Assembly (NCBI GenBank): GCA_020058565.1
Contig: JAGVDT010000036.1
Location: forward strand, 1-34,842
DNA from: Minisyncoccota bacterium
GTDB lineage: Bacteria; Patescibacteriota; Minisyncoccia; Phycocordibacterales; UBA2100
Direction of reading: 5' to 3'
Length of the DNA: 34,842 nucleotides
Shown here: piece by piece, positions 1 through 15,174 of the stretch
How the letters are laid out: the number at the start of each line of letters is the position of its first letter
How positions within the stretch are numbered: position 1 is the first letter of the stretch
Notes under the pieces: model-generated
Told to the model about the DNA's origin: nothing
Database searches by the model: none
What the model saw: the letters and a program-made list of their open reading frames with translations, nothing else
Program-made: the position numbers and the translations under genes

Positions 1-150
1 GAGTGAGCCGGATGGGATGTTTGAAATAGCGAGGCTGGTGGTGGTGGCGTTTGCGATCACTGCATCTGCGAATGAAGAAGTAGATGATGCGTTGATGCCG
101 CTGGTGAAGTTGAGATAGGTGGTGGTGGCGTTGTTTGGGAAGAGGTAGCC
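1..150 (-). repeat. Copy 1 of a ~150-nt near-identical intragenic DNA repeat (window starts inside or at it)
   Basis: gagtgagccggatgggatgtttgaaatagcgaggctggtggtggtggcgtttgcgatcactgc... aligns without gaps to 1195-1344 and 1645-1794. It encodes YLFPNNATTTYLNFTSGINASSTSSFADAVIANATTTSLAISNIPSGSL. Confidence 0.85.
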
Positions 151-3100
151 AAATGTTGAGTAGTCAGTACCCGGGACGGCGGCCTGTATTGCCCCACCCG
201 CCCCTGCTTTAAGAAGAGATCCATTGGCGATGTTTGCGATTGCAAAGGATGTCGTGGTGGCATTCGCGAACAGCGCCGATGAAGTCGAAACAAAATTTCC
301 AACCGCGAGCGCGCTGTAGAACGTCGAGGTGCTGACCGCGAGATTGGCGACTCCACCGACGGAGAGCAGCGTTCCGGCGCTGGTGGTGCCGATCCCGACA
401 TTGTTTGAAAAATATGACTTACCCATCACTTCAAATATGCTCGCGAGCGTGGAAGTGCCGCTGGCGCCTACAACCACGACATCGTTTGTATCCGTGGGGT
501 AAATTCGCAAGTCGTCGGTAGACGTAGACCATGCGCCTGCGCCGCCGCCGCCGCCGGAAGAAATGTCGGTGCCCCACACCGGCAAAAGGCTGCCGTTGAG
601 CTTGAGGACATTTCCGCTTGCTGCACCGCCAGTCGTCAGTACTGTGAGATGGTTGGGCGAATCAGCGTACAAGATGTCTCCCGTAGCGTACGTCGTTATT
701 CCAGTACCCCCCTGCGTTGCCGCGAGCGTGCCGGAGATATTCGCCAGAGTTGTGGTTGCGGTCCATGTGGGCACTCCGCCAAGAAGCGCCAAGACTTGCC
801 CCGGAAGACCTGCCGATGTGGTGGCGAGCGCTCCGGAGCCGTTTCCATAGAGGAGCGCGCCAGTGGCGACACTCGACCAGCCGGTCCCACCGTAGATCGC
901 GCTCAAAGTGCTGGTTGCCGAAACTGTGCCATTGATCGCCTGCAACGGTCCCGTAAGGCTGCCAATCGAGAACGTGCCGTTAAATGCGTTGGTGCCGGTA
1001 AAAGTATTATTCGCATATGTCTTTGCGATCGTAGTAGAGGCATCCGCAAAATAGATAGCGGAAGTGGTCGAAAAGAAATCACGCTGCGTCTTCCAGAAGT
1101 CTGTTGAGGTGGTGCTAAAGAGCGTGGCGTTCGCCGAGAGGAAGTCGGTGCCTGCTACAGCTGCAAGTACCGAGCCGCCGGTGGTTGTTTTGAGGAGTGA
1201 GCCGGATGGGATGTTGGAGATGGCAAGTGATGTCGTGGTGGCGTTTGCGATCACTGCGTCTGCGAATGATGAAGTGGAAGATGCGTTGATGCCGGAGGTG
1301 AAGTTGAGGTAGGTGGTGGTGGCGCTGTTTGGGAAAAGGTACGAGAAGTTGGCGTAGTCGGTGCCGGCTACTGCTGCCACGACACTCCCCTGTGCGTTGG
1401 TTTTGAGGAGGACTGAAGAAAGTCCGGTAAAGATCAGGTTGGTGGTGGTGGCGGTGCCATTTACGGTAAGGCCGCCGGTTTGGGTGCCATCGCCGATGGT
1501 GGTGGAGGCAAAGGCGGTGAGGCCGCCGTTGAAGTTGATGAGCGTGTTGGTGGCGTTGTTTGGGAAGAGGTAGGCGAAGGTGGAGGCGACGTAGTCGGTG
1601 CCCGCGACCGCGGCCAAAACTGAGCCACCAAGACCTACCTTCAGGAGCGAGCCGTTGGTGATGTTGGAAATAGCGAGGCTGGTGGTGGTCGCGTTTGCGA
1701 TCACTGCGTCGGCGAATGAAGAAGTAGATGATGCGTTGATGCCTGAGGTGAAGTTGAGGTAGGTGGTGGTGGCGTTGTTTGGGAAGAGGTATGCAAACGC
1801 GCTACCGGTCTGGTCGCTCCCGCAGCCAAACGTGCCGTTGTTGTAGGTGAGAAATGATCCGGCCTGGCAGACATTGAGACCTGCACCAAAGAGCTGCGAA
1901 GTGGAAGCAATCGAGGCAAAGAGCGTGGTCGTTGTCGCATTCACGAAATCCGCGTCAGCGAAATGCGAAGTCGACGAGGCGAAGATTCCGCTTTGCGCCC
2001 ATATTGGACTCGAGGTAGCGGCGGCCACTACCGAGTAATTAGAGAGCCATGTAAACGGCGCCCCTTGTCCCACCGCAGTCTGGTCCGTTACGCAGGAAAA
2101 TCGGCCGTTTGCGTACGTGAGCACTTCGCCGCCCGCGCAGGTAGCGAGGCCCGCTCCGTAGTAGAGCGTTGAGGATGCGTAGCTGGCAGAAATGCCGGTG
2201 GTGGAAGCATATGCAAATGTCTGTGTACCCGTAAATGTGTTGTTGACATATGTTTTAGGAATTGTGGTAGAAGCATCTATAAAGTAGATAGCGCTCGTTG
2301 TCGAAAAGCCGGACAGACTTTGTGTCGAAAGGAAATACGAGGCTGATGTCGTAGAAAATGCGAGGCCCTGGTATTGCTCTAGGAAATATGCCGATGATGT
2401 TGTCGAGAAAAGATTGCGAGAAGAGAGAAACGCATCGGCCGAAGTGGTAGAAAAGAAATTCGTTGCGCTTGCCCAGTAGTTTACGCTCGTGGTTGAGAAA
2501 AAGTCGTTGGCAACTTTCCAATAATCAGCGCTGGTGGTCGAAAAGAAAAATCCCTTATCGTACGTCGCGAGAAGATGCTCTGCAGATGTGGTCGAGAAGA
2601 AATTGTTTTGCGTTTTCCAGTAGTCAGCCGATGTTGTCGAGAAAGCCGAGATGTTTTGCTGAGCAAGGAAGTACGAAGCCGATGTAGTGGAAAACGCCGC
2701 ACCTTGATTCAGCGCTAGGAAATTCGAGGCCGACGTGGTGGAAAATCCGAGCGCGATCAGCTGCGCCGCCGTATACCCGCTGTGCGTGCCCGTCCAATCT
2801 CCCGTGCTTGTACTTACGTAGTCCTCTCCCGGAGTCGCGAGACTCACGGCGCCGTCGGCGCCGACTTTCAAAATCCCATTCGTCAAAGATGAGATGACAA
2901 GGTTTGAAGTAGATGCATGCGCGGACGTGACAGCGGTCGTGGATGCATACGGGAATACTGATGCGTTAGTCGATGTTGCGACAAAGTTTGGCGAGGTGAT
3001 GGCGTTGTATGCAACAATCGTTCCCCGGAAAAGGCTGTTGCCTCTGACTTCGATAATGTTTCCTATTGTCGTCGTCGCCGTATTTCCGACCAACACCACC

Positions 3101-4620
3101 TGTGCCGGATTCGACGTATACACCGCAAGCTCATCCGTTGTGGTTGCCCACGCGCCGGCGCCACCGCTTCCCTGGAGATCGGGCTGCCAGCTCGGGAAGC
3201 CGCCATTGAGTTTGAGCACGAGACCATTGGCGCCAGCCGGCAGCGCCGCAAGGTTGTCTGCGACGTCCGCATACAGTATGTCCCCTGCCGCGAGCGAACT
3301 TGGCACATCAGTCAGCGCGACAAACGTCGTGACGCCGCTTACGTTGGTGACATTGGTCACGGTAGTTCCTCCGCCGCCGCCGGCCAACGATATCGCCTGA
3401 TACACCTTGGATATATCCGGAGAATGTGCGATGGAGTTGGCATCGATTTTCGCCGATAGACTCGCTTCAAGCTGCGCTAGCCGGCTATTGAGAAGGGATT
3501 CGCTGATGCCTCCCTCGCTTACCACGCGCTCCACTGTGACGCGTTCGATGACTCGCTCGCTTGTCGCCTGAGCGATTGTAGTGGGCTGAACATTTTTCTG
3601 CACTGTTTCTGCGATTTGCTGCGGGGTCGGGCGCGGCAAGGGCGCAGGTGCCGGAGGCGGCGTCTGGGCGAGTGGCTGCGAAACGATCGGTGTCACTTTC
3701 AAAGTGACGGTAGCCTGATTGCTACCGCTAATCATCGCAAAGAAAGATCCAACACTCGAAGAAATTGCGCCGAAGAAGTTAGCAACCGGATTGCTAGCTG
3801 CAGCTGCTAGCGCCGTGCGCGAATCCGATACTGCGCTGAGTGGCATTGAAAAATCTGACTGCGCGATCTGAGCGCTTTCGCTGCCGGATGTCGGCTGCAC
3901 ACCGGTGATGGCGGCAACAGACGACGAGTACATAGCGCGAACATTCTTCGCAAAGCTCGGATCAAACGCGGAATACACGCCGACCAAAATCAAGACGGCA
4001 AATGTCATGGCTGCCGCGCGATGCACCATATCCGCCGCCGGGATCAAAATATGCTTTCCATGCGTCACGTGCGTGACTGCGTCGTGGAAACCAGCTTGAA
4101 CTCCCGTAGGAGCCGGTATGTATGAAGCCGCGTGCGCTATTTTTGCCTTTAGTCCGTGGCGAAAATCCGAGTGAAGCGCCTTACGATATGCGGCGCGACG
4201 CTTGGCGTGCTCCATCGTGTGAACTTTCGGCAAACTAGAAAAATTATTCTCCGGAAAAATAATCCGGTGTGACTCTCGCTCCTGATTCTCGACAAGCTGC
4301 TTAAAGGCAGACTTAGAATGCTCGGCTGCCTTAGGCACGGGTATCGTAGGCGCGTGAAAAACTGCGAATCTCTGATCTTTGTACTCCTGCTTGCGTTGCT
4401 TGCTAAGGCTTTCTTTGCGCTCGATTTTGCTTACTTCGCTCGATCCGAGAAACTTCGACAGTGAACTAGGCTCAACATACCAATTCTTTCCAACGCGTCT
4501 TCCGGCAATTCTTCCTGCGCGACATAACCTGGTTATGTAGTCTCGGGACAGACCAGCAGCAAGAGCAGCATCTGAGGCCGATACGTACCGTTCTTTGCCA
4601 AAGAAAATCTCGTCAGACAT
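1..4620 (-). CDS. Giant repeat-rich, N-terminally membrane-anchored fibre/adhesin-like protein; C-terminus lies beyond the window start; >=1540 aa; missing from supplied ORF track
   Basis: I checked every plus-strand triplet in phase 1-3, 4-6, ... and found no tta/cta/tca between 1 and 4620, so the minus strand is open throughout. The ATG is the rc of 4618-4620 and is preceded by an in-frame stop (cta 4630-4632). The translation starts MSDEIFFGKERYVSASDAALAAGLSRDYITRLCRAGRIAGRRVGKNWYVEPSSL (excisionase/HTH_17-like). It has a single TM, RAAAMTFAVLILVGVYSAF (3964-4020), and a Pro-rich linker QPLAQTPPPAPAPLPRPTPQQ (3613-3678). After that come >1100 aa of T/S/G/A/N-rich repeats. Confidence 0.85.
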   Translation of the reverse strand, partial: MSDEIFFGKERYVSASDAALAAGLSRDYITRLCRAGRIAGRRVGKNWYVEPSSLSKFLGSSEVSKIERKESLSKQRKQEYKDQRFAVFHAPTIPVPKAAEHSKSAFKQLVENQERESHRIIFPENNFSSLPKVHTMEHAKRRAAYRKALHSDFRHGLKAKIAHAASYIPAPTGVQAGFHDAVTHVTHGKHILIPAADMVHRAAAMTFAVLILVGVYSAFDPSFAKNVRAMYSSSVAAITGVQPTSGSESAQIAQSDFSMPLSAVSDSRTALAAAASNPVANFFGAISSSVGSFFAMISGSNQATVTLKVTPIVSQPLAQTPPPAPAPLPRPTPQQIAETVQKNVQPTTIAQATSERVIERVTVERVVSEGGISESLLNSRLAQLEASLSAKIDANSIAHSPDISKVYQAISLAGGGGGTTVTNVTNVSGVTTFVALTDVPSSLAAGDILYADVADNLAALPAGANGLVLKLNGGFPSWQPDLQGSGGAGAWATTTDELAVYTSNPAQVVLVGNTATTTIGNIIEVRGNSLFRGTIVAYNAITSPNFVATSTNASVFPYASTTAVTSAHASTSNLVISSLTNGILKVGADGAVSLATPGEDYVSTSTGDWTGTHSGYTAAQLIALGFSTTSASNFLALNQGAAFSTTSASYFLAQQNISAFSTTSADYWKTQNNFFSTTSAEHLLATYDKGFFFSTTSADYWKVANDFFSTTSVNYWASATNFFSTTSADAFLSSRNLFSTTSSAYFLEQYQGLAFSTTSASYFLSTQSLSGFSTTSAIYFIDASTTIPKTYVNNTFTGTQTFAYASTTGISASYASSTLYYGAGLATCAGGEVLTYANGRFSCVTDQTAVGQGAPFTWLSNYSVVAAATSSPIWAQSGIFASSTSHFADADFVNATTTTLFASIASTSQLFGAGLNVCQAGSFLTYNNGTFGCGSDQTGSAFAYLFPNNATTTYLNFTSGINASSTSSFADAVIANATTTSLAISNITNGSLLKVGLGGSVLAAVAGTDYVASTFAYLFPNNATNTLINFNGGLTAFASTTIGDGTQTGGLTVNGTATTTNLIFTGLSSVLLKTNAQGSVVAAVAGTDYANFSYLFPNSATTTYLNFTSGINASSTSSFADAVIANATTTSLAISNIPSGSLLKTTTGGSVLAAVAGTDFLSANATLFSTTSTDFWKTQRDFFSTTSAIYFADASTTIAKTYANNTFTGTNAFNGTFSIGSLTGPLQAINGTVSATSTLSAIYGGTGWSSVATGALLYGNGSGALATTSAGLPGQVLALLGGVPTWTATTTLANISGTLAATQGGTGITTYATGDILYADSPNHLTVLTTGGAASGNVLKLNGSLLPVWGTDISSGGGGGAGAWSTSTDDLRIYPTDTNDVVVVGASGTSTLASIFEVMGKSYFSNNVGIGTTSAGTLLSVGGVANLAVSTSTFYSALAVGNFVSTSSALFANATTTSFAIANIANGSLLKAGAGGAIQAAVPGTDYSTFGYLFPNNATTTYLNFTSGINASSTSSFADAVIANATTTSLAISNIPSGSL
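1195..1344 (-). repeat. Copy 2 of the ~150-nt intragenic DNA repeat
   Basis: gagtgagccggatgggatgttggagatggcaagtgatgtcgtggtggcgtttgcgatcactgcgtctgcgaatgatgaagtgg... is collinear with copies 1 and 3. Confidence 0.8.
1645..1794 (-). repeat. Copy 3 of the ~150-nt intragenic DNA repeat
   Basis: gagcgagccgttggtgatgttggaaatagcgaggctggtggtggtcgcgtttgcgatcactgcgtcggcgaatgaagaagtagatgatgcgttgat... By hand alignment it has about 13 mismatches in 150 nt against copy 1. Confidence 0.85.
2270..2750 (-). repeat. Intragenic tandem array of about 10 consecutive 15-18-aa units built on FSTTSAxY(F/W); two further units at 1021-1122
   Basis: Hand translation gives FSTTSASNFLALNQGAA, FSTTSASYFLAQQNISA, FSTTSADYWKTQNNF, FSTTSAEHLLATYDKGFF, FSTTSADYWKVANDF, FSTTSVNYWASATNF, FSTTSADAFLSSRNL, FSTTSSAYFLEQYQGLA, FSTTSASYFLSTQSLSG, FSTTSAIYFIDASTT. 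At the DNA level there are recurring ggtcgaaaagaaa / tgtcgagaaa strings. Confidence 0.8.
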
Positions 4621-4622
4621 AT

Positions 4623-4754
4623 TTATCGGCTACTAGACAGAAATCCCCAGAATGAAATGCGAATCATGCCGCCGCGAAGACGTACCGGTCCAGAAATTTG
4701 ATGAGCACTCAAATCCTGGAGCAAAGCTGCAGATTTTGAATTCTGTTTCTTCAT
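4623..4754 (-). CDS. Speculative 43-codon upstream ORF abutting the giant gene
   Basis: The minus strand reads ATG (rc of 4752-4754) ... TAA (rc of 4623-4625), giving MKKQNSKSAALLQDLSAHQISGPVRLRGGMIRISFWGFLSSSR. The stop lies 2 nt before the giant gene ATG (cgaTAAatATG). It is below the length cut-off of the ORF track. No recognisable domain, so it could be chance. Confidence 0.2.
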   Translation of the reverse strand: MKKQNSKSAALLQDLSAHQISGPVRLRGGMIRISFWGFLSSSR

Positions 4755-5111
4755 GCTTGAAATTTTCTGCCAGCTTCGCGTTAAGATTTCGAGTTTTAGC
4801 TCGGTTCAGGAATTGTTCGGGTGACCGATTTAACTAATATTTTACTAGACATTTCGGACATTTTATTTTCGCGATTCTGCAAAATCTGTGGATATGTATG
4901 CATATTTTTTTCCTTACGATATAGAGACGATGGATCGCGATATATTTCGCAAACTAAAGCAATTTTATGCGGGGAACCACACCACCGACAATATTTATCA
5001 AAATATTCTTATCCCAACTTGGTTTCCTGACTAATTCTCGGCTGCCCGAGCATCGATAAATATAGGTATATTGCTGATTGAGGCTGATTCAGACTCTGCT
5101 TTGCGGCCCGA

Positions 5112-5147
5112 CCAAAATGCGACGACCGAGTTTAGCTCGGTCGCCGC
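5112..5147 (-). terminator. Intrinsic-terminator-like hairpin downstream of the 339-aa gene
   Basis: The minus strand reads gcggcgaccgag-ctaaa-ctcggtcgtcgc followed by auuuugg. The stem is about 11 bp with one mismatch. It lies about 25 nt after the stop at 5172. Confidence 0.6.
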
Positions 5148-5171
5148 AAATGGTTTTAACTCAGAGTAGAT

Positions 5172-6191
5172 TTACTCGACCGAACGGATGTACACGAGCT
5201 CCTTCGAAAGCAGGACCTCAAGTGAGAGCTTATTGGCTGCCGCGGTTGCTACTGAAGCCACTTGGCGATCATCGGGCTCAAATATCGCACTATAGATTCT
5301 CTCGCCGCCACTCAATCCTAGCGCGGTTCCCGCAAGCACTAAGAGTACAAGCACTAGGACTGGAACTGTGGCTTGAAACATAGACTTTCCGGGTATTGGG
5401 ATACTTCTCGGTTGATTTTTTTTGGAGCCTTCTGCGGACGATTTATGCTCGAACGCATAGTGAGTTTTTTCGTCGGCTTCCTCAACGAGCCTGGCCTCTA
5501 GTACTCGTATGGGTATTCTGCTGCTTGTCTGTTGCATCGAATCCAAAGCGGCGGTAGCGGGTTGCGCTCGGAGCTCGAACTCCGGCAGTACGGACGAGAG
5601 CGTCGGAAAGAGTGGCTTTTCGTCTTTGCCATACTCCATCAGTTTTTGCTTCTCTACGTTTATCGGCAAAGCATTCTGGATCTCAACTGGCACCGGACGT
5701 TTTAATCCGACTGATTCTGCCTGCACTGCGCGCAGAAGCGCTTCTTTCTCTTTTTTGTGTTCGAGGATCGCTTCCCTGTCAACATACCAGCGATTTCCCA
5801 CCTGCGTCGAGGGAATTTTGCCTGCACGAGCAAGTTGGCCGACGTAATCTTGATTGTAATCTGTTATCTTTGCAGCGAGCGCGGCAGAGACAAATTCTTT
5901 TCCGTCTTCCCGAATTGTCGCTTCTACATTTGGATCAGGCTGGTATTTTGGCGGTTCAGGTTTGAACGCCTCGGCTTTTAATTTGTATGCATGAAGAGAT
6001 TCAGGAAATACATACCATTGGTTTCCTACCCGCCTGGCGTCAACGTGCCCAGCACGACAGAGCTGCCCAACGTAGTCTTGGGTATATCCAAATTCCACAG
6101 CCGCCCTTTTAGAGGCAATGTAAGTTTTGCTATCAAGAGTAACCGCATCCATTCCGGTAAGTATAACAGCACGAGAACGCATATCGTCCAT
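5172..6191 (-). CDS. Hypothetical membrane protein with two excisionase/HTH_17-like repeats and a C-terminal TM helix
   Basis: ORF-track protein of 339 aa. The motifs are YIASKRAAVEFGYTQDYVGQLCRAGHVDARRVGNQWYVFPESL and FVSAALAAKITDYNQDYVGQLARAGKIPSTQVGNRWYVDREAI, paralogous to the N-terminus of the giant protein. The hydrophobic helix ATVPVLVLVLLVLAGTALGL sits near the C-terminus. Confidence 0.75.
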   Translation of the reverse strand: MDDMRSRAVILTGMDAVTLDSKTYIASKRAAVEFGYTQDYVGQLCRAGHVDARRVGNQWYVFPESLHAYKLKAEAFKPEPPKYQPDPNVEATIREDGKEFVSAALAAKITDYNQDYVGQLARAGKIPSTQVGNRWYVDREAILEHKKEKEALLRAVQAESVGLKRPVPVEIQNALPINVEKQKLMEYGKDEKPLFPTLSSVLPEFELRAQPATAALDSMQQTSSRIPIRVLEARLVEEADEKTHYAFEHKSSAEGSKKNQPRSIPIPGKSMFQATVPVLVLVLLVLAGTALGLSGGERIYSAIFEPDDRQVASVATAAANKLSLEVLLSKELVYIRSVE

Positions 6192-6381
6192 CCGAGTTGC
6201 CGAGATAGTGAATAACTTCGCGCCATAATAAGCGCCCGTAAATCCGGAGCACGAATACTGAAGTCCGAGATACTATTAAATTCACCAACTAATATCTGAA
6301 GAATCACCCATAAAGCTGCCTAAGAATTTCAAATCAACCGGGTCAATCTGACACCATTGCTGGGATGCCCTGCTCGAAATA

Positions 6382-8154
6382 TCAAACCTCCGAGCTCGAG
6401 CCTATTTGCTGTTTAATCATTGCTCGTAACGCCGCAGGATCGGCTGCTCCCCTCAGTGACTTCATTGCCTGCCCCACGAGGTACTCTATAGCCGCTGTTT
6501 TGCCCGATTTCACATCATCTACCACAGTGGCGTTATCGGCAATAATTTTGGCCACAATTTGCGCGAGTTGTGCTGAGGAATCGCTTTGAAGCAGCTTTTG
6601 CTCCCTGGCCAGCACTTCGGGGTCGCTTTTGCCGTCCATGCAAATTTGAAGCAACTCCTTTACGGCCCGCGACGATATTCTTTTTTCGCTGGCCATTCGG
6701 ATAACTTTCGCGAAATTATCGGGAGAAATAGGCACAATATCGAGAATTTTCATATCTCGGGTACCGGCATCTCGGATATCCGTGATTAACTTTACTAGAT
6801 CATTGGAGATGTAGTTAGAAGCCAGCTTTAGTTCAGCGGGTTTCTCCTGTAGAGCATGGCCGACGGCTTCAAAAAATTCGCCGTACAGTGGCTCTTTGAC
6901 ATAGAGCTCAATATCTTGTGTATTGATTCCTAAGGTCGCGAAACGCGTTCTTTTCTCCCACGGCAGCTCGGGCAGCGTCTTTTTTACGGTATCTAAAGTC
7001 AGGCCGAGTTCGGAAAGCTTTAGGGATGGTAGATCGGGATCGGGAAAATATCGGTAGTCTGCACTACCCTCTTTTACACGCTGGCTAAAAGTAGCCTGCT
7101 TGTGTTCGTCCCAGCCGCGAGTTTCCTGCACAACTTTTTCACCTTTCTCAAGTAGCGCTATCTGCCGTTTTACTTCGTAGTCTATGGCGCGCTCCAGAGC
7201 TCGAAAGGAATTTATGTTCTTTACCTCAACTTTAGTACCGAGTTTGGAAATATCGACTTTGAAATTAGCCTCAGGTAGATCTCCTGCATTCTCCGCGTTC
7301 ACTCCGGTGCTTTTGCTCGTCCCGCTTGAGTCCTCGGCGGCAGCTCTTTCGCTTGCCCCATTGCCCGTTTTTATTCGCTTTGACCCGTTCTCCCCATTCT
7401 CTCCGTTCGTTCCGACGGAATCGCTGCCATTAGAGACCAAAGACGCGGAAGCGCTTACGGCTTCAAAAATATGTGCTGATGGGCTTCTCGTCGCTGAAGA
7501 AACTAAGGAACTTTCTGGCGAGAAAGAATTATTCTTCATGCGCTGTGCATCTTCCGGAGATATTTTTGCGACACTAATGTTTGCTTCGAGCCGCATCTGC
7601 CCTTTTTCCATATCAGCTTCGGATGCTCCGAGCGTTCTCAAAAGCACCTGCAATTCCCTGCCGAAATTTCCCGCCTCCCTCGCGCTATGCAGCACCGGCT
7701 CTGTCACAAGCTCCATCAAAGGAACGCCCGCACGATTGTAATCCACCAAAGTAGCTCCCGAGCTTTCATCGTGGATTGAACTAGCGGTGTCCTCCTCAAG
7801 ATGAATCCTGGTCAGCGTAACACCGTTTAGCGATCCTCCTGAGACCAAAGGGTACTCAAACTGCGACAACTGATACCCTTTTGGGAGGTCAGGATAGAAA
7901 TAATTCTTTCGGTCGAATTCCGTATAATCTGCCAATTTTGCGCCAAGCGCTGCCCCAACACGCAAAACATGCTCTACCGCAGCCCTATTTATCACCGGAA
8001 GGGTGCCCGGATGGGCCATACACACCGGACAAACGTTGATATTAGGCCGTTTTTTCGCTGCATCATTCTTTGATGCACAAAACATCTTGGTGCGCGTGTT
8101 TAATTCCGCATGAATTTCGAGACCAATCGTCGGCCAATATCTGTCTTGCGCCAT
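6382..8154 (-). CDS. gatB: Asp-tRNA(Asn)/Glu-tRNA(Gln) amidotransferase subunit B, with an internal low-complexity insertion
   Basis: N-terminus WPTIGLEIHAELNTRTKMFC...CPVCMAHPGTLPV, plus DRKNYFYPDLPKGYQLSQ, RIHLEEDT and SADYRYFPDPDLP, and a C-terminal YqeY-like tail (AAIEYLVGQAMKSLRGAADP). All are classic GatB signatures. Confidence 0.95.
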   Translation of the reverse strand: MAQDRYWPTIGLEIHAELNTRTKMFCASKNDAAKKRPNINVCPVCMAHPGTLPVINRAAVEHVLRVGAALGAKLADYTEFDRKNYFYPDLPKGYQLSQFEYPLVSGGSLNGVTLTRIHLEEDTASSIHDESSGATLVDYNRAGVPLMELVTEPVLHSAREAGNFGRELQVLLRTLGASEADMEKGQMRLEANISVAKISPEDAQRMKNNSFSPESSLVSSATRSPSAHIFEAVSASASLVSNGSDSVGTNGENGENGSKRIKTGNGASERAAAEDSSGTSKSTGVNAENAGDLPEANFKVDISKLGTKVEVKNINSFRALERAIDYEVKRQIALLEKGEKVVQETRGWDEHKQATFSQRVKEGSADYRYFPDPDLPSLKLSELGLTLDTVKKTLPELPWEKRTRFATLGINTQDIELYVKEPLYGEFFEAVGHALQEKPAELKLASNYISNDLVKLITDIRDAGTRDMKILDIVPISPDNFAKVIRMASEKRISSRAVKELLQICMDGKSDPEVLAREQKLLQSDSSAQLAQIVAKIIADNATVVDDVKSGKTAAIEYLVGQAMKSLRGAADPAALRAMIKQQIGSSSEV

Positions 8155-8378
8155 AGTCTCTGAATACTATCAGAGGTCTCTTTCAAGTGCCATCGTGTTC
8201 AAAAAACTGCGGGGAAAACGCCTCTGTGCATGACAGAAGGTCAGGCGAACAAGACAACGGTGCAACTTGTGAGCGAATATGGCGCATATTTAGAGCCATT
8301 TTATACAGCACCTGTTCCCGGCGAAATAATGAATTTTTGCGTACTGCGAAGTGGGAAATGCGTCTCATGATGCAAGCA

Positions 8379-8410
8379 AGGTTTAGCCTGTGATCGCATA
8401 GGCTAAACCT
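8379..8410. repeat. Perfect 11-bp inverted repeat (hairpin) about 215 bp upstream of the Y1-transposase-like gene
   Basis: aggtttagcct (8379-8389), a 10-nt loop, then aggctaaacct (8400-8410). Possible REP/IS200-type subterminal hairpin, or a terminator. Confidence 0.5.
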
Positions 8411-8613
8411 TACTAGATAAGCCAAAAAACAAAAAATGTCGAAAAAACGCGATTTTTAGACGCTTTTTAGCATATTTTGCCTCAATTTCGCGCAGATTTT
8501 GTGCTGAAAATCATTTTCGGGAGAAGCGCGCATCGTTTGTCGAATTCGCGTTGTGCGTTTGTGCTGGCTGCGAGTCAATACTAGTAACGTCTAGCTTTGC
8601 GTAAAAAAACATC

Positions 8614-8619
8614 TACAAT
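8614..8619 (+). promoter_or_regulatory. -10-like TACAAT placed 6 nt before the ATG (possible leaderless transcript)
   Basis: tacaat-tacacc-ATG at 8614-8628. There is no Shine-Dalgarno sequence between them, and no convincing -35. Confidence 0.3.
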
Positions 8620-8625
8620 TACACC

Positions 8626-9288
8626 ATGAGAAAAACAAAATTCGAGTTAGGCGGCCACTATCACCTATTCAATCGCGGCGTCGACAATCGAAATGTCTTT
8701 GTTTCGAAAGAAGACTACGATCGCTTCGAGGCGTACTTATATCTCCTGAACGACACGGAGAGCCCGCGAGCGGCCAATTTTTTTGTTGGCAAAAGATACG
8801 GATCAATTTTTGAAAGCGCGCGAACACAACCGCTGATAGCAATAGGCGCATTTTCATTATTGCCAACCAATTTTCATATCATTGCCTCCCCTCTTGTCGA
8901 TCGAGGTCTTCCCAAATTTATGCAGAAGCTTACGACAGCCTATACAATGTACTTTAACGACAAGTATCAGCGCACGGGCTCGTTGTTTGAGGGTACCTAC
9001 AAAGCTCATGGGGCCACAAGCGATAATCATTTGAAATTCCTGCTATCGTTAACGCACCTTGCCCCCGCCCAACTGTTCAACAAAAAATGGGCCGAGGACG
9101 ATATTTTTAAGCTGGAGCGACTATCCGGTGAGCTGATGGATTATCGTTACTCGAGTGTGGGCGAATACATCAGCGGTAAAAATATAATCACTGACCCGCA
9201 ATACTTCCCACGATACTTCGGACGCGCCAAGAGCATGGACACGTATCTAAGATACTGGGAGGATAACAAAAACAAATACACTAACTAG
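8626..9288 (+). CDS. IS200/IS605-type Y1 (HUH) transposase homologue, REP-associated tyrosine transposase (RAYT)-like; HUH motif degenerate
   Basis: YHLFNRGVDNRNVF...DYDRF at the N-terminus, LLPTNFHIIA where the family has (M/L)PNH(F/V)H(L/I)L, and RTGSLFEGTYKAH matching the G.LFQGRYKS catalytic-Tyr motif. Confidence 0.8.
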   Translation: MRKTKFELGGHYHLFNRGVDNRNVFVSKEDYDRFEAYLYLLNDTESPRAANFFVGKRYGSIFESARTQPLIAIGAFSLLPTNFHIIASPLVDRGLPKFMQKLTTAYTMYFNDKYQRTGSLFEGTYKAHGATSDNHLKFLLSLTHLAPAQLFNKKWAEDDIFKLERLSGELMDYRYSSVGEYISGKNIITDPQYFPRYFGRAKSMDTYLRYWEDNKNKYTN

Positions 9289-9829
9289 AACACCGATGCG
9301 TACGCCGTCTGCATGCAAAAGCAGAGCTCCGACTACACTCGGTACAGCGAGTAGTACAAACGAGGAGGTAGCGGGAAGGACTTTCAGTTCCCTGGCGAAG
9401 GTACGTGCCGTCTCCATATCCTGATCTCATCTATATCAATGAATGGTTGTACCAGGCTAAATGGTGTATGCCATGCAATCATTCACTACCAATTGGTTAA
9501 TGAGTGGCGCATCTCGTTTTCGCCCTACCGGCAATGGGCCAACGGGCGCTGGACAATCTAGGTGCTTCGGTGCGCGATCACTAAGCAATTGCCCTCCGCT
9601 TATCAATCTCGGTAAACACAGATTCGCAGAAAACTCGATATCTCGGCATAAATGACTGCATGGATAGGGAGCGGAAGTTGCGGTAGTGGTTTGTTCAAGC
9701 GGGTTCTTCGGCTGTTTTAGAGCACACTCTTGCCTAAGGCAGACCCGCTCAGCCGCTGTGTAGAGGCCTTCAGCGCCTACAGGCATTCTCTTCAGGTGCG
9801 AAGCCAGCGCGACGCCCTGAACGGCGCTT

Positions 9830-11440
9830 TTACTTCTGTACAGAAGGGCCGCCTTTAAGTCGCACCACCGATTTGCGGACAACCGAGGCTGCGGTGAATA
9901 GGAAGAGTAGTAGCGGGATAGCCAAAACACTCTCTCCAAGGCGCGAATACGCAGTACGTGTACCTAGGAGTGGACCTGCCGCTGTCATAAACGATATGCC
10001 GCCTACGGGAGTCCTCGCTATGACTTCTCCTGCATCAGAAACTACTGCGGATGACGCGCCATTATGTACCATTGCCACGTATCTCCCGCTTTCGACCGCG
10101 CGCAGCTTTGCGTGCGCTATCAGCATTTGAGTGGACATGAAACCGTGATGCAGCCAGCTATCTGGACAGACATTTATCAAAATTTGCGCGCCACTGTTTG
10201 AGAGGTCTGCATACAAGCTCGGAGAGAAAATTTCGGCGCACAGTAGCGCGCCTATTTTCATGTCGCCGAGCGGGAGCGGTTGAGGAGTCGTTCCCGGATG
10301 CAGTACCGGCAAAGAGTTTTTACGAGCTGCATGTTCTCCCAGTATGTAGCTTTGTGCGGAAGAAAACAGATAGACTGGATATTCAGCGACTGGGGCGAGC
10401 AGCGTTGTATTGTGCGAGGCGACAATCTCGCCATCGCTTGAATAGGCAGTCAATCGTTTATAGGTGCCTGCAGACGTCTCCATCGTGGCAACATCGATAA
10501 TTTTCGGAGAATTTCCTGTAAGCACTGTCTTGAGTACCGATGTGGGCTCGACTCCCGAGGCGCTCAGGAATTCTCCGGAAGGAATTATCAAAACATCGAG
10601 CATTCGTACGGTGTCGGATACATCGCCCAAAAGCTCCCCTATCTGCCGTCCGCGCTCGGTTACTTCTGCCTTGGAGAGCGAAACTTTCGGGAAGAAGTCC
10701 GTCGTGATTGCGCCCATGTTGAGGACGCCCCGTTCGTCCGGAGAGGATGGCACGATGTGAAATTTGGTGTCTAGGAGCGTTACCGATATGCATGCGACGA
10801 CTGCGAGTACGACGGCGGCTACTTTAACCTTGATCGACGGAGCATACTTCCCCATCAAGGCTTCGGCGGCAAATCCGATCAGGACGACAGTAAACGTAAG
10901 GCCGTATACCCCGCCAAACTGAGCGAGGTATAAAAGCGGTGAGAACGCCGAGAGCGCATAGCCGAGCATTGTTGCGGAAAAATGCGCCGCCATGCCATTT
11001 TCATTCCCGGCCATAAGTGCGGCAAATGCCCACATCTGCGCGTATTGCAGAAGCGTCCATGCTGACGCTGCGAAAAGTATTCGCAGGGCCGGATTCTCAG
11101 TACGAAGCACGCGATACAGGAGCGCAAACACTCCAAAAAAAATGCCAAGCACGGCTGAGGCAGAGCCCCAGTAGAGGTACACTAGAGCGAAGCCTTTGGT
11201 TTCCGGAATGCCAGCCCAGGTAATCGGCAACAGGTCCCACAGCCAAAAGAGAGCGCCGGCCGAGTACACAACGCCAAAAAGCGTGCCTATGCCGAAATGC
11301 CTAAGCAGCCCGCTGCTTGCTTCTGTATGCAGCGCAAACGCGAAGGCTGCAACCGCAAAAAAAGCCAAGAACCACACCTGCGGCGCGAGGAGCGCAGCTC
11401 CCCCGAAAATTCCAGCTAGCGCTGCGAGAGCATATGTCAC
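9830..11440 (-). CDS. lnt: Apolipoprotein N-acyltransferase
   Basis: A polytopic N-terminal half is followed by a CN-hydrolase (nitrilase-like) domain. The Lnt-type active-site context is MKIGALLCAEIFSP. Confidence 0.8.
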   Translation of the reverse strand: MTYALAALAGIFGGAALLAPQVWFLAFFAVAAFAFALHTEASSGLLRHFGIGTLFGVVYSAGALFWLWDLLPITWAGIPETKGFALVYLYWGSASAVLGIFFGVFALLYRVLRTENPALRILFAASAWTLLQYAQMWAFAALMAGNENGMAAHFSATMLGYALSAFSPLLYLAQFGGVYGLTFTVVLIGFAAEALMGKYAPSIKVKVAAVVLAVVACISVTLLDTKFHIVPSSPDERGVLNMGAITTDFFPKVSLSKAEVTERGRQIGELLGDVSDTVRMLDVLIIPSGEFLSASGVEPTSVLKTVLTGNSPKIIDVATMETSAGTYKRLTAYSSDGEIVASHNTTLLAPVAEYPVYLFSSAQSYILGEHAARKNSLPVLHPGTTPQPLPLGDMKIGALLCAEIFSPSLYADLSNSGAQILINVCPDSWLHHGFMSTQMLIAHAKLRAVESGRYVAMVHNGASSAVVSDAGEVIARTPVGGISFMTAAGPLLGTRTAYSRLGESVLAIPLLLFLFTAASVVRKSVVRLKGGPSVQK

Positions 11441-11472
11441 GCGCTAAGGATACCTCGACTCACGCGGCTTCA

Positions 11473-14061
11473 CTAGCTCTCATCGACGATGCGCCACTCT
11501 CCCGAGGCCAGGAGATCATCGGTCTTTTTAAATTTCACTTCGCGCACCTCTTTGCCGTTGGTTATTTTTACTTTGTCGTTGCGACCGTATTCTTTTTTCG
11601 GCCCCACGTGTCCGGTAGCGGTGATAGTCCGGGCGGCAGTCTGGACGGAGCGTTCCTGCCTGGAGCTCGGAGCACCTTCTGAAGTGATGTTGGGGATGCT
11701 TTGCGCCACATGCTGGGTATACGTATCTTCCATCGTATGAAAGAGCCGGAGGCCTTCTTTTTTGTATTCTACGAGCGGATCTCGCTGGCCGTATGCGCGC
11801 AAATTTACCGATGAGCGCAAATATTCCATAGCCTCGAGATGCTCCACCCAAAGGTAATCGATCGTTTGGAGCAAGAACCTCCGCACTATAGGGTAAAATG
11901 CATCACCAAGCTCTTGTTTTTTCATGCGGATTGCGTCGGGGAAATCTGACTTTCCGGAAAAGATGCGCTGTAATTCCGTGTCGATCGCTTCGTTGCCTTC
12001 TGACAATAGCGCTCGACGGCGCTGATAGACACTTTTGCGCTGAATGTTGAGTACGTCGTCGTATGCGAGCACGTGCTTACGAGCATCGAAATTCATTTCT
12101 TCAATGCGCGTCTGCGCCTTTTCAAGCGATCGGGTGATCATGGAGTTATAGATTGGTTCGTCTTCAGGAATACCAAAAGTGCCCATTACGCGCTTAATAG
12201 CGTCGGATGCAAATATGCGCATCAAAGAATCCTCCAGCGAAACAAAAAATTGCGTTTCTCCCGGATCTCCTTGTCGGCCTGCGCGGCCTCGCAGCTGATT
12301 ATCAATGCGACGGGCTTCATGCCGCTCTGTGCCAAGTACAAAGAGACCGCTGAGCTTTTTAATTTCTTCGTATGCACCTTCCGGCGCGGGGTTTCCTCCG
12401 AGTTTGATGTCCACACCGCGGCCTGCCATGTTGGTAGCGATAGTGACTCCCCCTTTCCTGCCCGCCTGCGCAATAATCTCGCCTTCGCGTTCGTGATTTT
12501 TCGCGTTTAATATTTCGTGAGGAATGCCCTCTTGGCGAAAATACGCAGACAAGACCTCGTTCCTTTCGACTGATGCCGTTCCGATGAGTACCGGCTGGCC
12601 CTTTTCGTGCATTTCTTTGACTCGCCTGGCGATGGCTTTCATCTTCCCCGCTTCAGTTTGGAATATCAGGTCTTCATGGTCTTTGCGTTCCGTTTTTTTG
12701 TTGGTCGGTACGACCACCGTATTGAGTCCGTAGACTTTGTAGAATTCTTCGGAACTCGTGACTGCCGTGCCGGTCATGCCTGCGAGCTTGTCGTATAAGC
12801 GAAAATAATTTTGGAACGTAATCGACGCGAAAGTGCGGCTTTCTTGCTGTACCGAGACGCCTTCTTTGGCCTCGATAGCCTGATGCAGTCCGTCGGACCA
12901 ACGGCGGCCCGGCTGAAGACGACCGGTGAATTCGTCTACTATCACAATCTGTCCGTCCCGCACGACGTATTCTTTGTCGCGATTATAGAGCGCTTTCGCG
13001 CGTACCGCTGTTTCCAGATGATGCACAAACTTAATACCGGCATCAGTGTATATGTTGTCTATCCCAAGAGCCCTTTCGGCCTTTTCAATACCAGAATCAG
13101 TTAGTTCTATCTGTTTTTTCTTTTCGTCAACCGCGTAGTCATCGTCCCGCTTGAGGGATCCCGCTATGCCGGCGAACTTTGCATACAAGGACTCGGCTTC
13201 GGCCATCGGCGCGGATATTATCAGAGGTGTGCGCGCTTCATCGATAAGTATGGAGTCTATTTCGTCGACAATCGCAAAATGATACCCTCCGTCTTTCTGA
13301 AGACGCTGACGGAGCTTTTCCGGTTCGTACTCAAGATTGTCACGCAGATAATCAAAGCCGTATTCATTGTTGGTGCCATAGGTGATGTCGGCCGCATATG
13401 CTTCACGCCGCGTACAAGGACGCAGATACTCGTGCACTACGTGAAAGCTCCCCGTCTCATCACGTTTCGTATCTAGTACATCTTTTGCCTCGGCCTGGTT
13501 ATTGTTTCTTGTTTCTTGTGCTTTGTTTTGTGTTTCTTGGTTATTGATATTTGCCACTCCGTGGCGAGGGTCGTATATAAAAGATGCTTCGTGATTTATC
13601 ACGCTTGTCGACATTCCAAGCGCATGATAGACCTGCCCCATCCATACCGCATCGCGCCTTGAAAGATAGTCATTTACAGTGACCACGTGCACGCCTTTCT
13701 CTGTGAGGGCATTGAGGTATGCAGGAAGCGTCGCCACCAAAGTCTTGCCTTCGCCGGTGCGCATTTCAGCGATGTCGCCGTTGTGGAGAATCATGCCTCC
13801 AATCAGCTGCACGTCAAAGTGTCTCTGCCCGAGCGTACGTCGAGATGCCTCGCGTACCGCGGCAAAAGCCTCTGGAGCCAGGTCGTCGAGACTTTCGCCT
13901 TCAGACAGGCGCTTTTTGAATTCGGCTGTTTTTGCCTTGAGAGCCTCGTCGGAAAGCGCTGTAAACTGCGGCTCAAGTGCGTTTACCTTGCCCACAATAG
14001 GGGCAGCGCGGTTGTAGGCCGCAGCGTTCTCATCGCCAAATAATGCCTTCCAAAATGTCAT
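11473..14061 (-). CDS. secA: Preprotein translocase ATPase SecA
   Basis: MRTGEGKTLVATLPAYLNAL (Walker A), VVTVNDYLSRRD, AYAADITYGTNNEYGFDYLRDN, AIVDEIDSILIDEARTPLIIS, LAGMTGTA, TIATNMAGRGVDIKLGG. Confidence 0.97.
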   Translation of the reverse strand: MTFWKALFGDENAAAYNRAAPIVGKVNALEPQFTALSDEALKAKTAEFKKRLSEGESLDDLAPEAFAAVREASRRTLGQRHFDVQLIGGMILHNGDIAEMRTGEGKTLVATLPAYLNALTEKGVHVVTVNDYLSRRDAVWMGQVYHALGMSTSVINHEASFIYDPRHGVANINNQETQNKAQETRNNNQAEAKDVLDTKRDETGSFHVVHEYLRPCTRREAYAADITYGTNNEYGFDYLRDNLEYEPEKLRQRLQKDGGYHFAIVDEIDSILIDEARTPLIISAPMAEAESLYAKFAGIAGSLKRDDDYAVDEKKKQIELTDSGIEKAERALGIDNIYTDAGIKFVHHLETAVRAKALYNRDKEYVVRDGQIVIVDEFTGRLQPGRRWSDGLHQAIEAKEGVSVQQESRTFASITFQNYFRLYDKLAGMTGTAVTSSEEFYKVYGLNTVVVPTNKKTERKDHEDLIFQTEAGKMKAIARRVKEMHEKGQPVLIGTASVERNEVLSAYFRQEGIPHEILNAKNHEREGEIIAQAGRKGGVTIATNMAGRGVDIKLGGNPAPEGAYEEIKKLSGLFVLGTERHEARRIDNQLRGRAGRQGDPGETQFFVSLEDSLMRIFASDAIKRVMGTFGIPEDEPIYNSMITRSLEKAQTRIEEMNFDARKHVLAYDDVLNIQRKSVYQRRRALLSEGNEAIDTELQRIFSGKSDFPDAIRMKKQELGDAFYPIVRRFLLQTIDYLWVEHLEAMEYLRSSVNLRAYGQRDPLVEYKKEGLRLFHTMEDTYTQHVAQSIPNITSEGAPSSRQERSVQTAARTITATGHVGPKKEYGRNDKVKITNGKEVREVKFKKTDDLLASGEWRIVDES

Positions 14062-14172
14062 CGGGTCATCCTATCATCGGAGGCCGAAAGTATCTACCTC
14101 GAGACAAAGGATTCTAGTTTGCGATACGTGACGATAAACAGATTCATACCCCACACTTCCACCGCATACCCG

Positions 14173-14208
14173 TATGCTATTTTTACGCGATAGCGTAGAA
14201 ATAGCATA
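14173..14208. promoter_or_regulatory. 36-nt palindromic element, copy 1 (just after the PaaX-like stop, about 110 nt upstream of the secA start)
   Basis: tatgctatttttacgcgatagcgtagaaatagcata. The arms tatgctattt/aaatagcata are a perfect 10-bp inverted repeat. The first 18 nt and last 8 nt are identical to copy 2. Confidence 0.6.
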
Positions 14209-14210
14209 CA

Positions 14211-14786: not shown

Positions 14787-14821
14787 ATGCTATTTTTACG
14801 CGACCGCGCATTTATAGCATA
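14786..14821. promoter_or_regulatory. 36-nt palindromic element, copy 2 (abuts the PaaX-like start codon)
   Basis: tatgctatttttacgcgaccgcgcatttatagcata, with arms tatgctat/atagcata. It overlaps the T of the ATG (rc of 14784-14786). Confidence 0.6.
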
Positions 14822-14936
14822 GGAATATTTTTCCGCCATGCGTTTACTCTGCGAGAGTAGCAAAATATTTTTTCAGCCTATCAAGACGATCCTGCAGTTA
14901 ATGCAACAGATGACTTCGCAACGTAGGCCATAAGAC

Positions 14937-14961: not shown

Positions 14962-14974
14962 GCGCAAGAAACTT

Positions 14975-14994: not shown

Positions 14995-14997
14995 GCC

Positions 14998-15172: not shown

Positions 15173-15174
15173 CT

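Follow-up and report, generated by a model that had tools for sequence, protein, structure and literature searches.

What does the very long open frame at the left end of this contig encode, and what might so large a protein do for the cell? The window analyzed here is the whole of one 34,842-bp contig, as held at NCBI, JGI/IMG, and Logan; on the minus strand of positions 1 to 4620, a first-pass annotation had read at least 1540 uninterrupted codons and proposed a giant membrane-anchored fiber for attachment or contact. We found that the gene is real, that at most its 5′ three-quarters are visible here, that it comes from an ultra-small bacterium of the Candidatus Kaiserbacteria type (Parcubacteria, Candidate Phyla Radiation [CPR]), and that this giant gene is the largest coding unit of the window, as had been remarked. 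By sequence comparison, it is one ordinary member of a conserved, uncharacterized family. We consider it likely that the product is a membrane-anchored giant fiber for contact and adhesion, probably trimeric, with an exchangeable tip that would give it specificity.

Read from the ATG at 4620, the minus strand again gave 1540 sense codons and no stop, in agreement with the earlier reading, while the remaining frames of the same interval hold 45 and 36 stops on the minus strand and 39, 37, and 89 on the plus strand. At the stop rate of the two other minus frames (about 2.6%), simple arithmetic puts the chance of 1540 open codons at about 1e-18. An in-frame TAG lies four codons 5′ of the ATG, and the opening residues MSDEIFF are common to the window protein and its orthologs; thus, ATG 4620 is a well-placed and conserved start. 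The mechanical list of open reading frames (ORFs) contains nothing longer than 168 aa between 1 and 4620, as had been observed, because the frame exits the contig end and the list omits, by definition, any ORF that leaves a sequence end. The term “uncalled” therefore fits that list but not the gene: the absence is an artifact of the list, a partial gene has been called publicly, and more than 190 family members stand in databases as “hypothetical protein.”

Because the window is an entire contig, the giant gene breaks off where the contig does. Window positions 1714-15322 are 100% identical in an independent assembly (Logan SRR6489207, contig L001), which thereby reproduces the first 969 codons; its own gene call for the giant gene is a partial product of 969 aa. 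The window ends in a repeat of about 150 nt, and the Logan contig stops at window position 1714, within the 1645-1797 copy of the same repeat. Both assemblies thus stop inside copies of one repeat, which makes the truncation an assembly effect. We sought a leftward extension by scanning metagenome contigs with a 29-nt pattern from the three repeat copies, a scan that returned no match and left the window contig itself unmatched as well.

Codon usage also marks the frame as coding. A score of synonymous-codon preference, with 15 other genes of the contig as the training set, was highest in the giant frame (+0.094, against -0.066 and 0.001 in the other frames, with reference genes from -0.03 to +0.13) and was frame-specific in every fifth of the ORF save the first. 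The alternative that the frame is non-functional, be it a chance opening, a chimera assembled across repeats, or a pseudogene, can appeal to the end of the contig within a repeat, repeats being prone to mis-assembly, and to a few short orthologs (299-504 aa) that may be disrupted. The minute chance probability, the 969 codons found identical in a second assembly, the homologs of the same architecture, and the codon preference in four of the five fifths all argue against this alternative, to which we assign next to no credence.

To whom does the gene belong? A word-indexed search returned ten homologs (E 1e-141 to 4e-30), the named ones from Candidatus Kaiserbacteria or other Parcubacteria, which bears out the earlier suspicion of a CPR-like organism; they are labeled “hypothetical protein” and, once, “Hemagluttinin family protein” (P0008). 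When a profile of the N-terminal module was searched exhaustively with HMMER, the number of matching representatives was 6748 at a limit of E ≤ 1e-3, 2294 at a limit of 1e-10, and 193 at a limit of 1e-30, and the top matches, up to 3958 aa long, cover the whole module. Among GTDB representatives, which do not include the source genome, the closest identity of the N-terminal helix-turn-helix (HTH) was 62%. A scan of one genome per species gave 37 loci, labeled as Kaiserbacteria, Parcubacteria, Paceibacterota, or “Nomurabacteria” metagenome-assembled genomes (MAGs) and including one complete 859-kb Kaiserbacteria chromosome. Ten loci are labeled “Saccharibacteria” and one (L036) “Hyphomicrobiales,” labels that look wrong to us. 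The gene order Wzy_C-TPR, SecA, GatB, partner, giant is found in nearly all 37 loci, as in the window, where GatB occupies 6382-8154; a gene that we call the partner lies 5′ of the giant gene in 35 of the 37, GatB is also shown in 33, and L036 lacks the synteny. In alignment, the window protein has the full N-terminal module of the family, comprising the HTH, a transmembrane helix, a “LAAAA-NP” motif, a Pro-rich linker, and an “ERV” neck.

Complete orthologs measure 1600, 2121, 2145, 2225, 2256, 2371, and 2466 aa, and two more exceed 3414 aa, a lower bound set by the 10-kb flank that was retrieved. The full window protein is, by comparison with these relatives, probably between 1600 and more than 3400 aa long. 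The giant gene runs off the contig or locus end in 25 of the 37 loci: in 23 public assemblies the contig itself breaks inside the gene, and in L020 and L030 the 10-kb flank is limiting; in L013 the gene is split by a run of N. Since assemblies break inside the gene, the family is systematically truncated and under-annotated in MAGs, and its short database “members” are mostly fragments. Locus L002 (GCA_021733385.1, 6837-8213, plus strand) carries two tandem MSDEIFF-type giant genes.

The first four parts that the first-pass annotation had listed were all recovered: an excisionase-like HTH at aa 12-58, a single hydrophobic helix about 200 aa in (aa 198-221), a PAPAPLPRP linker (Pro-rich core PPPAPAPLPRP, aa 321-331), and a stalk-like segment (ERVIERV...LAQLEASLSAKI, aa 354-392) that is predicted to be helical. 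We modeled the N-terminal 440 aa with AlphaFold2 (AF2) on an alignment of six homologs; the model is confident for the HTH alone and, in part, for the neck helix. The predicted local distance difference test (pLDDT) score was about 92 over aa 1-80, with the topology b-b-a-a-b-b-a, and 83-90 along the helix 51-88 as far as aa 80. In this model, the winged-helix fold (b-b-a-a-b-b) superposes on the Xis, BldC, and MerR N-domains. Foldseek placed the HTH beside Pukovnik Xis, BldC, RdfS, and RacA, with target-normalized template modeling (TM) scores of 0.55-0.76 and root-mean-square deviations (rmsd) of 1.6-2.9 Å (Xis 4j2n, TM 0.69-0.71, rmsd 1.7 Å; BldC, TM 0.70-0.76, rmsd 1.6-2.3 Å); TraN was a weaker neighbor (TM about 0.36, rmsd 6 Å). 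The accompanying E values are only 0.09-0.6 because the HTH accounts for about 50 residues of a 440-residue query. These fold neighbors are all DNA-binding proteins. Conservation follows the fold: R31, in the second HTH helix, is invariant among the six aligned sequences, and the wing G-R-R-x-G-x-x-W is largely conserved, R42, G44, and W47 each being shared by at least five of these sequences. HTH_17 scores 29.9 bits in ortholog P0004 and 41.7 bits in the partner, and TIGR01764 “excise” matches the window protein weakly (E 0.045). Compared with the partner's two HTHs, the HTH of the giant protein shows 38% and 47% identity.

Hydropathy and charge support the type-II, single-pass anchoring that had been proposed. 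Residues 198-221 form the only Kyte-Doolittle window of 19 residues above 1.6 (peak 1.82), and the helix is kept in position and sequence among homologs (HK.VALTLA..LTFGTYA.VDP). The 197 residues before it contain 33 K+R and 20 D+E, which fits the positive-inside rule; the length of the linker between HTH and helix differs among homologs. From the basic N terminus that lacks a signal peptide, the single helix, and a remainder that is nearly uncharged, Cys-paired, and sequon-rich, we infer a bitopic signal-anchor protein with its N terminus inside and its C terminus outside the cell. Bact_surface_Ig-like domains near the far end of orthologs fit a surface location. Beyond the membrane, no segment of the N-terminal module is as well conserved as the neck, which comes second to the HTH, with V357, E359, G371, and L377 invariant and a helix at aa 374-398 modeled at pLDDT 66-78. 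Its spacing is heptad-like, and the neck may oligomerize.

Beyond about aa 430, and as far as the contig reaches, the protein is dominated by Thr (16%), Ala (14%), Ser (13%), and Gly (10%) and is also rich in Asn. Charged residues are scarce: K+R amount to 1.8% over aa 431-1540 and to 2.4% of everything after the transmembrane helix. Sequons of the type N-x-S/T number 31, in excess of the 21 ± 3.7 found in shuffled sequences. The composition and the length of more than 1100 aa are thus as first described, but the region does not consist of simple repeats; it is built of diverged modules arranged in a super-repeat. Self-comparison showed that aa 408-830 recur as aa 1249-1540, and the second round has barely begun at the contig end, from which the full protein should be considerably longer. 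The largest unit, module A (about 190 aa), occurs nearly in full 31 times among 22 family proteins. The FSTTSA-type repeat is present in 13 copies in homolog P0003, and the Cys loop recurs in P0003 and other homologs; the paired cysteines may form disulfides. Tandem Repeats Finder detected no repeats in positions 1-5000, which indicates that their DNA sequences have drifted apart.

The C termini of positional orthologs fall into at least three unrelated kinds of tip. Type i consists of a Peptidase_S74 domain (E 3e-18 to 3e-27), then a Bact_surface_Ig-like domain and a Ser/Thr tail; type ii is an end of about 180 aa with the pattern “...VYTIDG.KYATYG...RYDF.KW.N.RPDQD...”; and type iii carries “...TLTTTAN.CD..SF.AT....” Types ii and iii gave no match in Pfam or the PDB. 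Peptidase_S74 is present in P0003, P0004, P0005, and L036 and absent from the positional orthologs L004, L009, L010, L011, and L025, and its Ser-Lys motif (S-D-x-R-[LI]-K) is intact in 11 family members. S74 domains of endosialidase and phage tail fibers trimerize, nucleate folding of the fiber from the C terminus, and cleave themselves. The distal 400 aa of P0003, a relative that has both the FSTTS array and the Cys loops, are similar to PHROG 1980, “tail fiber protein,” along about 350 positions of the profile (3e-17), and P0005 matches a PHROG of phage structural proteins. The description “phage-fiber-like” thus applies to the distal parts of these relatives and would extend to the window gene through its kinship with them. 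Judging from the orthologs, the protein probably assembles as a trimer.

Among genomes whose SecA proteins are 70-76% identical, the N-terminal module is about 30% identical and the fiber can be aligned over 0-613 of 1110 aa. Such a mosaic, fast-evolving pattern is typical of receptor-binding proteins.

Upstream of the giant gene, the partner combines HTHs with a membrane helix of its own. The same architecture precedes the giant gene in 33 other genomes, with lengths of 292-408 aa, two HTHs (one in L031), a single transmembrane helix, and external tails of 31-61 aa that in most loci end in L..EL.Y.R. We considered whether the partner is a fiber-less paralog that shares the transmembrane and juxtamembrane module, and rejected this: BLASTP and hhalign showed no similarity beyond the HTHs, and the sole alignment, of one transmembrane segment to the other, had a probability of 2.6%. 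A terminator-like hairpin follows the partner gene, so the partner and the giant gene are probably transcribed separately.

Between the two genes lies a motif specific to the giant gene. Its 23 nt are partly palindromic and contain a palindromic core, CTAGTA-AAA-TACTAG, that overlaps a -10-like TAAAAT/ATAAAT and can also be read as a tandem 11-nt repeat, CTAG(T/A)(A/T)AAAT. It occurs in most orthologs, usually 13-40 nt before the ATG, and is unique in the 34.8 kb of the window (0 expected by chance). Allowing up to 4 mismatches, we counted 26 sites in 556 kb of loci, a count that includes the window copy twice through its duplicate L001; 25 lie in the same orientation, 2-498 nt 5′ of an MSDEIFF-type gene, and the 26th arises because the palindromic site of L023 is also read on the reverse strand. 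The second tandem giant gene in L002 has its own copy. The flanks of the motif are conserved as well (TATCCRGAAW on the 5′ side, GYRTCCGAAC on the 3′ side), and about ten loci have no recognizable motif. The element may be a promoter, an operator, or both. In the window, the leader between motif and start (4621-4825, minus strand) carries a degenerate second copy, TCTAGTAGCCGATAAAT, that abuts the ATG. A 43-aa leader ORF ending 2 nt before the ATG was discarded as a conserved small gene, being unconserved in any ortholog, as was a structured RNA (z-score -0.68, no Rfam match). The leaders of L008, L012, and L013 are also long and share no similarity with that of the window. The partner gene, the upstream motif, and the exchangeable tips of orthologs, Peptidase_S74 included, were the most informative features of the analysis and lay beyond what the first-pass annotation could see.

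How could these parts work together? In the scheme that we propose, the polypeptide would be inserted through Sec with its N terminus inside, and the Pro-rich spacer and the short helical neck would lift the fiber off the cell and through the wall. The 1100 and more residues that follow would form a long, almost uncharged fiber of shuffled, beta-rich modules; the C-terminal tip would fold last and zip up the trimer, and in its variable form would contact a ligand on a partner cell or surface. Fully stretched, such a fiber would by a rough estimate measure on the order of 100 nm. At the base, the cytoplasmic HTH and the partner might anchor the fiber to DNA, as RacA does, or to a cytoplasmic structure, or might couple it to gene control in a ToxR-like manner; alternatively, the HTHs may serve merely as a protein-interaction module. 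The analysis establishes that the gene is real, the order of its domains, its family membership and synteny, the fold of the HTH, the diversity of tips among orthologs, and the cis motif, whereas adhesion, trimerization, topology, and any DNA binding are inferred. We regard the family as a good candidate for the means by which Kaiserbacteria-type bacteria contact other cells.

Several observations weigh against this proposal. The contig stops before the C terminus of the window gene, and the tip type is therefore outside the sequence. The visible fiber has no Pfam match, gave nothing usable against PDB sequences by phmmer or profile search, and found no match by tblastn in 50,697 phage records; the window fiber and module A likewise found none among PHROGs. 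An AF2 monomer of module A, built on a 19-sequence alignment, was poor (mean pLDDT 57), with only two beta-hairpins in the first 45 residues reaching about 70-76; the models thus do not demonstrate the fold or the trimeric state of the fiber. A fold search of module A in BFVD was non-significant (best E 0.035, TM score about 0.2), and we made no use of it. A second hydrophobic stretch at about aa 279-297 could in principle be another membrane pass, which would place the fiber inside the cell. Its Kyte-Doolittle value is 1.49 here; across 92 family members the stretch has a median of 1.06, compared with 1.85 in the main helix, and attains 1.6 in only 4; we treat it as a probable interfacial helix. 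At the N terminus, the Pfam HTH_17 match (aa 12-58, E 1.1e-5) scores 26.1 bits, just below the curated cut-off of 27, and some orthologs, such as P0003, lack the HTH. Since such members exist, the HTH is accessory and not essential to the fiber.

Four other accounts of the protein have to be set against a contact fiber. It might be a general envelope coat, a fibrous or S-layer-like cover for protection, spacing, or hydration, which varies as a means of escaping phages or grazers and not to suit particular partners. A housekeeping envelope component would be expected as one syntenic copy in nearly all genomes, which is what we see, the extreme Thr/Ser/Ala/Gly composition with almost no charge suits a coat, and the rest of the contig is a glycan-synthesis cluster (GT2, two PMT_2, GtrA, Wzy_C-TPR, and sugar-modifying enzymes); in Vampirococcus, giant proteins have been linked to a fibrous coat (PMC8080830). 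However, we detected no SLH or other Pfam S-layer marker, and interchangeable tips, S74 ends, and tail-fiber homology are hallmarks of receptor-binding fibers rather than lattice proteins. A passive coat would also hardly explain a cytoplasmic HTH and a dedicated partner, and we hold this account, though plausible, to be unlikely. Much the same probability belongs to a contact sensor or membrane-tethered DNA-binding device, ToxR-like or RacA-like, which is compatible with the contact fiber and overlaps it in part, would use the fiber as its sensor, and has the upstream motif as one candidate target. It would make sense of an N-terminal fold that is confidently predicted to be of a DNA-binding type and whose neighbors all bind DNA, of three paralogous HTHs in two adjacent genes whose products are both membrane-anchored, of a partner architecture conserved in 33 loci, and of a palindromic or tandem 23-nt motif confined to the upstream regions of giant-type genes. 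Yet binding of the HTHs to DNA or to the motif is hypothetical, the motif may simply be a promoter, about ten orthologous loci have no recognizable copy, and P0003 and some other members have no HTH; moreover, the HTH type differs from that of ToxR and CadC, with no Trans_reg_C match, and a fiber of 1300 aa or more would be extravagant for sensing. A stronger combination, a trans-envelope device made up of the giant protein and its partner through which tip contact outside is coupled to DNA inside, strikes us as rather improbable. In that version, the three HTHs of each presumed trimer and the two of each partner would bind cooperatively to the CTAGTA-AAA-TACTAG or tandem CTAG(T/A)(A/T)AAAT element, or would tether chromosomal or incoming DNA at the contact site, and contact with a partner cell would be read out directly as changed DNA binding.

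The swappable tips admit two further accounts. They could be polymorphic toxins carried on a stalk, as in CdiA- or Rhs-like contact-dependent antagonism; a conserved N-terminal part with unrelated, exchangeable C-terminal ends has that look, and in tips of types ii and iii we recognized no known domain. Yet the searches revealed no toxin or pre-toxin domain, the genes that follow are of the same kinds regardless of tip type and not tip-specific in an immunity-like manner, and type i tips are an S74 chaperone with an Ig-like domain, as in phage receptor-binding fibers. We think a toxin-delivery fiber very unlikely. Alternatively, the S74 ends of relatives and their PHROG tail-fiber match might mark the gene as a tail-fiber gene left by a prophage or tailocin. 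Against such a remnant stand housekeeping and envelope neighbors whose order is conserved across 37 genomes, neighbors that include no phage structural, packaging, or integration genes, the N-terminal cytoplasmic domain with its membrane anchor, and the empty tblastn search of phage records. We exclude a prophage fiber, with hardly a residual doubt, because of the conserved synteny. A membrane-anchored contact fiber with an exchangeable tip is thus the reading that we carry forward.

Table 1. Positions of the giant gene, its parts, and adjacent elements in the window.
Feature	Residues (aa)	Position (nt)	Strand	Evidence or description
Giant gene, 5′ part (C terminus missing)	1-1540	1..4620	-	1540 codons from ATG 4620; homologs E 1e-141 to 1e-30; positional ortholog in 37 genomes
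Predicted cytoplasmic winged HTH, excisionase/MerR/BldC type (HTH_17-like)	1-60	4441..4620	-	Pfam, AF2, Foldseek
Basic cytoplasmic linker	61-197	4030..4440	-	Long helix to about aa 88, remainder of low predicted order
Single transmembrane helix, predicted signal anchor, N-in	198-221	3958..4029	-	Hydropathy, conservation
Predicted extracytoplasmic juxtamembrane region	222-315	3676..3957	-	Conserved “LAAAA-NP” motif; weaker hydrophobic stretch at about aa 279-297
Pro-rich linker PLAQTPPPAPAPLPRPTPQ	316-334	3619..3675	-	Translation; Pro-rich in the same place in homologs
Neck: ERVIERVTVERV, then helix GGISESLLNSRLAQLEASLSAKI with heptad-like spacing	354-398	3427..3561	-	Alignment, AF2
Module A, copy 1 (GDILYAD..G.VLKL.GG.P.W..GSGG..AWATTTD..VVLVG..ATTT.GNI.EV.GNSLFRG...)	436-625	2746..3315	-	Self-comparison
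Ten 15-17-aa “FSTTSA-YF/W” repeats	626-790	2251..2745	-	Register display, self-BLAST
Two C-x14-C modules (Cys 828/843, 918/933)	800-940	1801..2223	-	Cys positions, self-similarity
Three repeats of about 75 aa (YLFPNNATTT..NFTSGINASSTS..ANATTTSLAISNI.SGSLLK...GGSVLAAVAGTDY)	941-1160	1141..1800	-	Copies 45-92% mutually identical
Module A, copy 2, in second super-repeat round	1305-1498	127..708	-	Self-comparison
Contig-end DNA repeat		1..153	.	Further copies at 1645-1797 (90% identical) and 1195-1378 (83%)
Gene-specific motif CTAGTAAAATATTAGTTAAATCG		4826..4848	-	205 nt 5′ of the ATG; 2 mismatches to consensus CTAGTAAAATACTAGATAAATCG
Terminator-like hairpin		5118..5148	-	13-bp stem, T-run; just 3′ of the partner gene
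Partner gene, 339 aa		5172..6191	-	Two HTH_17-type domains (E 1.4e-10), one transmembrane helix at about aa 266-297, 45-aa external tail

The wider neighborhood of the window comprises GatB, Lnt, SecA, a PaaX_M-domain protein, and glycan-synthesis genes. GatB (minus strand) is 590 aa long, compared with about 478 aa in an ortholog, and a low-complexity insertion of about 97 aa rich in Ser, Gly, Asn, and Glu (aa ~198-294), absent from all orthologous loci checked, splits its GatB_N domain. The gene at 15721-17961 (minus strand) encodes a Wzy_C protein of the O-antigen-ligase or O-oligosaccharyltransferase type with a C-terminal TPR region, and it is syntenic with the fiber locus in most genomes. 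Positions 17983-33777 hold a glycan cluster with a C-methyltransferase, amine oxidases, epimerases/dehydratases, GT2, two PMT_2, an FkbM methyltransferase, and a GT2-GtrA. Taken with the Ser/Thr richness and the excess of sequons, this cluster suggests that the fiber may be glycosylated. On the plus strand, a 220-aa ORF (8626-9288) has no Pfam match, and its relatives are scattered through orthologous loci at 27-52% identity; the gene in the corresponding place on the contig of P0006 has a weak match to Y1_Tnp (IS200/REP-type transposase). The ORF may be a mobile or domesticated element around the locus.

In four loci (L009, L010, L011, and L025), the giant gene is followed on its 3′ side by a small gene and then by a membrane or secreted protein of about 880-1045 aa, which on the contig of P0006 carries SPRY/DUF7483. 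Judging by eye, we take the small gene 3′ of complete orthologs to be of the four-helix-bundle “23S rRNA IVP” type or to resemble a Y1 transposase (Y1_Tnp). The same small and large genes probably lie beyond the left end of the window. We also considered a diversity-generating retroelement acting on the tips and set it aside, as no reverse transcriptase was recognized in the N-terminal sequences, which alone were read, of the ORFs 3′ of complete orthologs.

Few bacteria are as abundant as the Parcubacteria or as poorly understood, and how they find and hold their partners is largely unexplained; besides type IV pili, few candidate contact determinants are available in them. The locus described here offers one as a single, syntenic, and easily recognizable gene pair across Kaiserbacteria, whose product, with its conserved anchor, mosaic shaft, and swappable tips, bears the marks of a determinant of specificity. 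Tip type could provide a handle for predicting the range of partners and for designing antibodies or probes, and the locus allows one to ask whether phage-derived fiber modules were recruited for cell-cell contact. Should the trans-envelope version prove true, it would amount to a new one-component contact sensor or DNA anchor on a phage-fiber scaffold in partner-dependent bacteria.

How does the family compare with known systems? With ToxR, TcpP, and CadC, the giant protein shares, as judged from hydropathy and charge, an N-terminal cytoplasmic domain of a DNA-binding type, one transmembrane helix, and an extracytoplasmic C-terminal part, and in the ToxR-ToxS pair a second, small bitopic protein is encoded alongside, to be compared with the partner. 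The HTH of the giant protein is nevertheless of the excisionase/MerR/BldC type and not of the OmpR/PhoB type (Pfam gave HTH_17 and AbiEi-type matches only), and its external part is a fiber of more than 1300 aa instead of a compact sensor. The chromosome anchor RacA is related in a different way, through its place among the structural neighbors of the HTH. Trimeric autotransporter adhesins, to which the NCBI name “hemagglutinin family” of P0008 alludes, are similar in being long, repetitive surface fibers with a variable head and would work in much the same way, and the giant protein is probably trimeric as they are; Pfam searches of the visible window protein and of complete homologs turned up no YadA-type head, stalk, or anchor domain. 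In contrast to these adhesins, the giant protein would be held by an N-terminal helix in the cytoplasmic membrane and not by a C-terminal barrel in the outer membrane; CPR cells are generally described as having no outer membrane. MYRF likewise unites a DNA-binding-type domain, Peptidase_S74, and a transmembrane helix within one protein family. In MYRF, S74 and the DNA-binding domain are neighbors in the cytoplasm, and S74 sets the latter free, whereas ortholog P0004 has its HTH at aa 12-58, S74 at aa 1568-1623, and between them the transmembrane helix at about aa 132-151. With S74 more than 1100 aa past the membrane at the external end, cleavage would not free the HTH.

The literature yielded precedent only for giant CPR surface proteins as a class. 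Vampirococcus lugosii, also a CPR bacterium, encodes giant membrane proteins of 1400-4200 aa, for which a fibrous, host-contacting surface was proposed and which carry WD40, PKD, integrin, fibronectin, or DUF11 domains (PMC8080830). The window protein resembles them in being giant, in its predicted membrane location, and in the fibrous surface and host contact suggested for them. Unlike them, it has none of these domains as far as we could detect, and its family has an HTH-transmembrane-neck module, a partner gene, and a cis motif of its own; Vampirococcus, moreover, belongs to the Absconditabacteria, and the window family to the Parcubacteria. Other work on giant genes concerns Omnitrophota (10.1101/2023.11.21.568195). 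In the literature covered, which did not extend to all journals, we found nothing on a family that joins HTH, transmembrane helix, fiber, and S74.

Phage tail fibers and tailspikes with Peptidase_S74, such as the endosialidase of phage K1F and the L-shaped fiber of phage T5, share several parts with the family: a long, modular, Thr/Ser/Gly-rich fiber, a C-terminal S74 with its Ser-Lys motif in complete orthologs, the PHROG match of P0003, and tips exchanged between otherwise orthologous genes. Unlike a phage fiber gene, the giant gene is chromosomal and sits in housekeeping synteny. The N terminus of its product carries an HTH and a membrane anchor in place of a tail or baseplate attachment domain, the protein would fold outside the cell after Sec export, many orthologs use tips other than S74, and the part visible in the window has no detectable phage homolog. 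What is new, in our view, is thus a cellular family of putative membrane-anchored fibers made of phage-fiber-type parts and equipped with a cytoplasmic domain of a DNA-binding type, a dedicated partner, and a cis element of its own.

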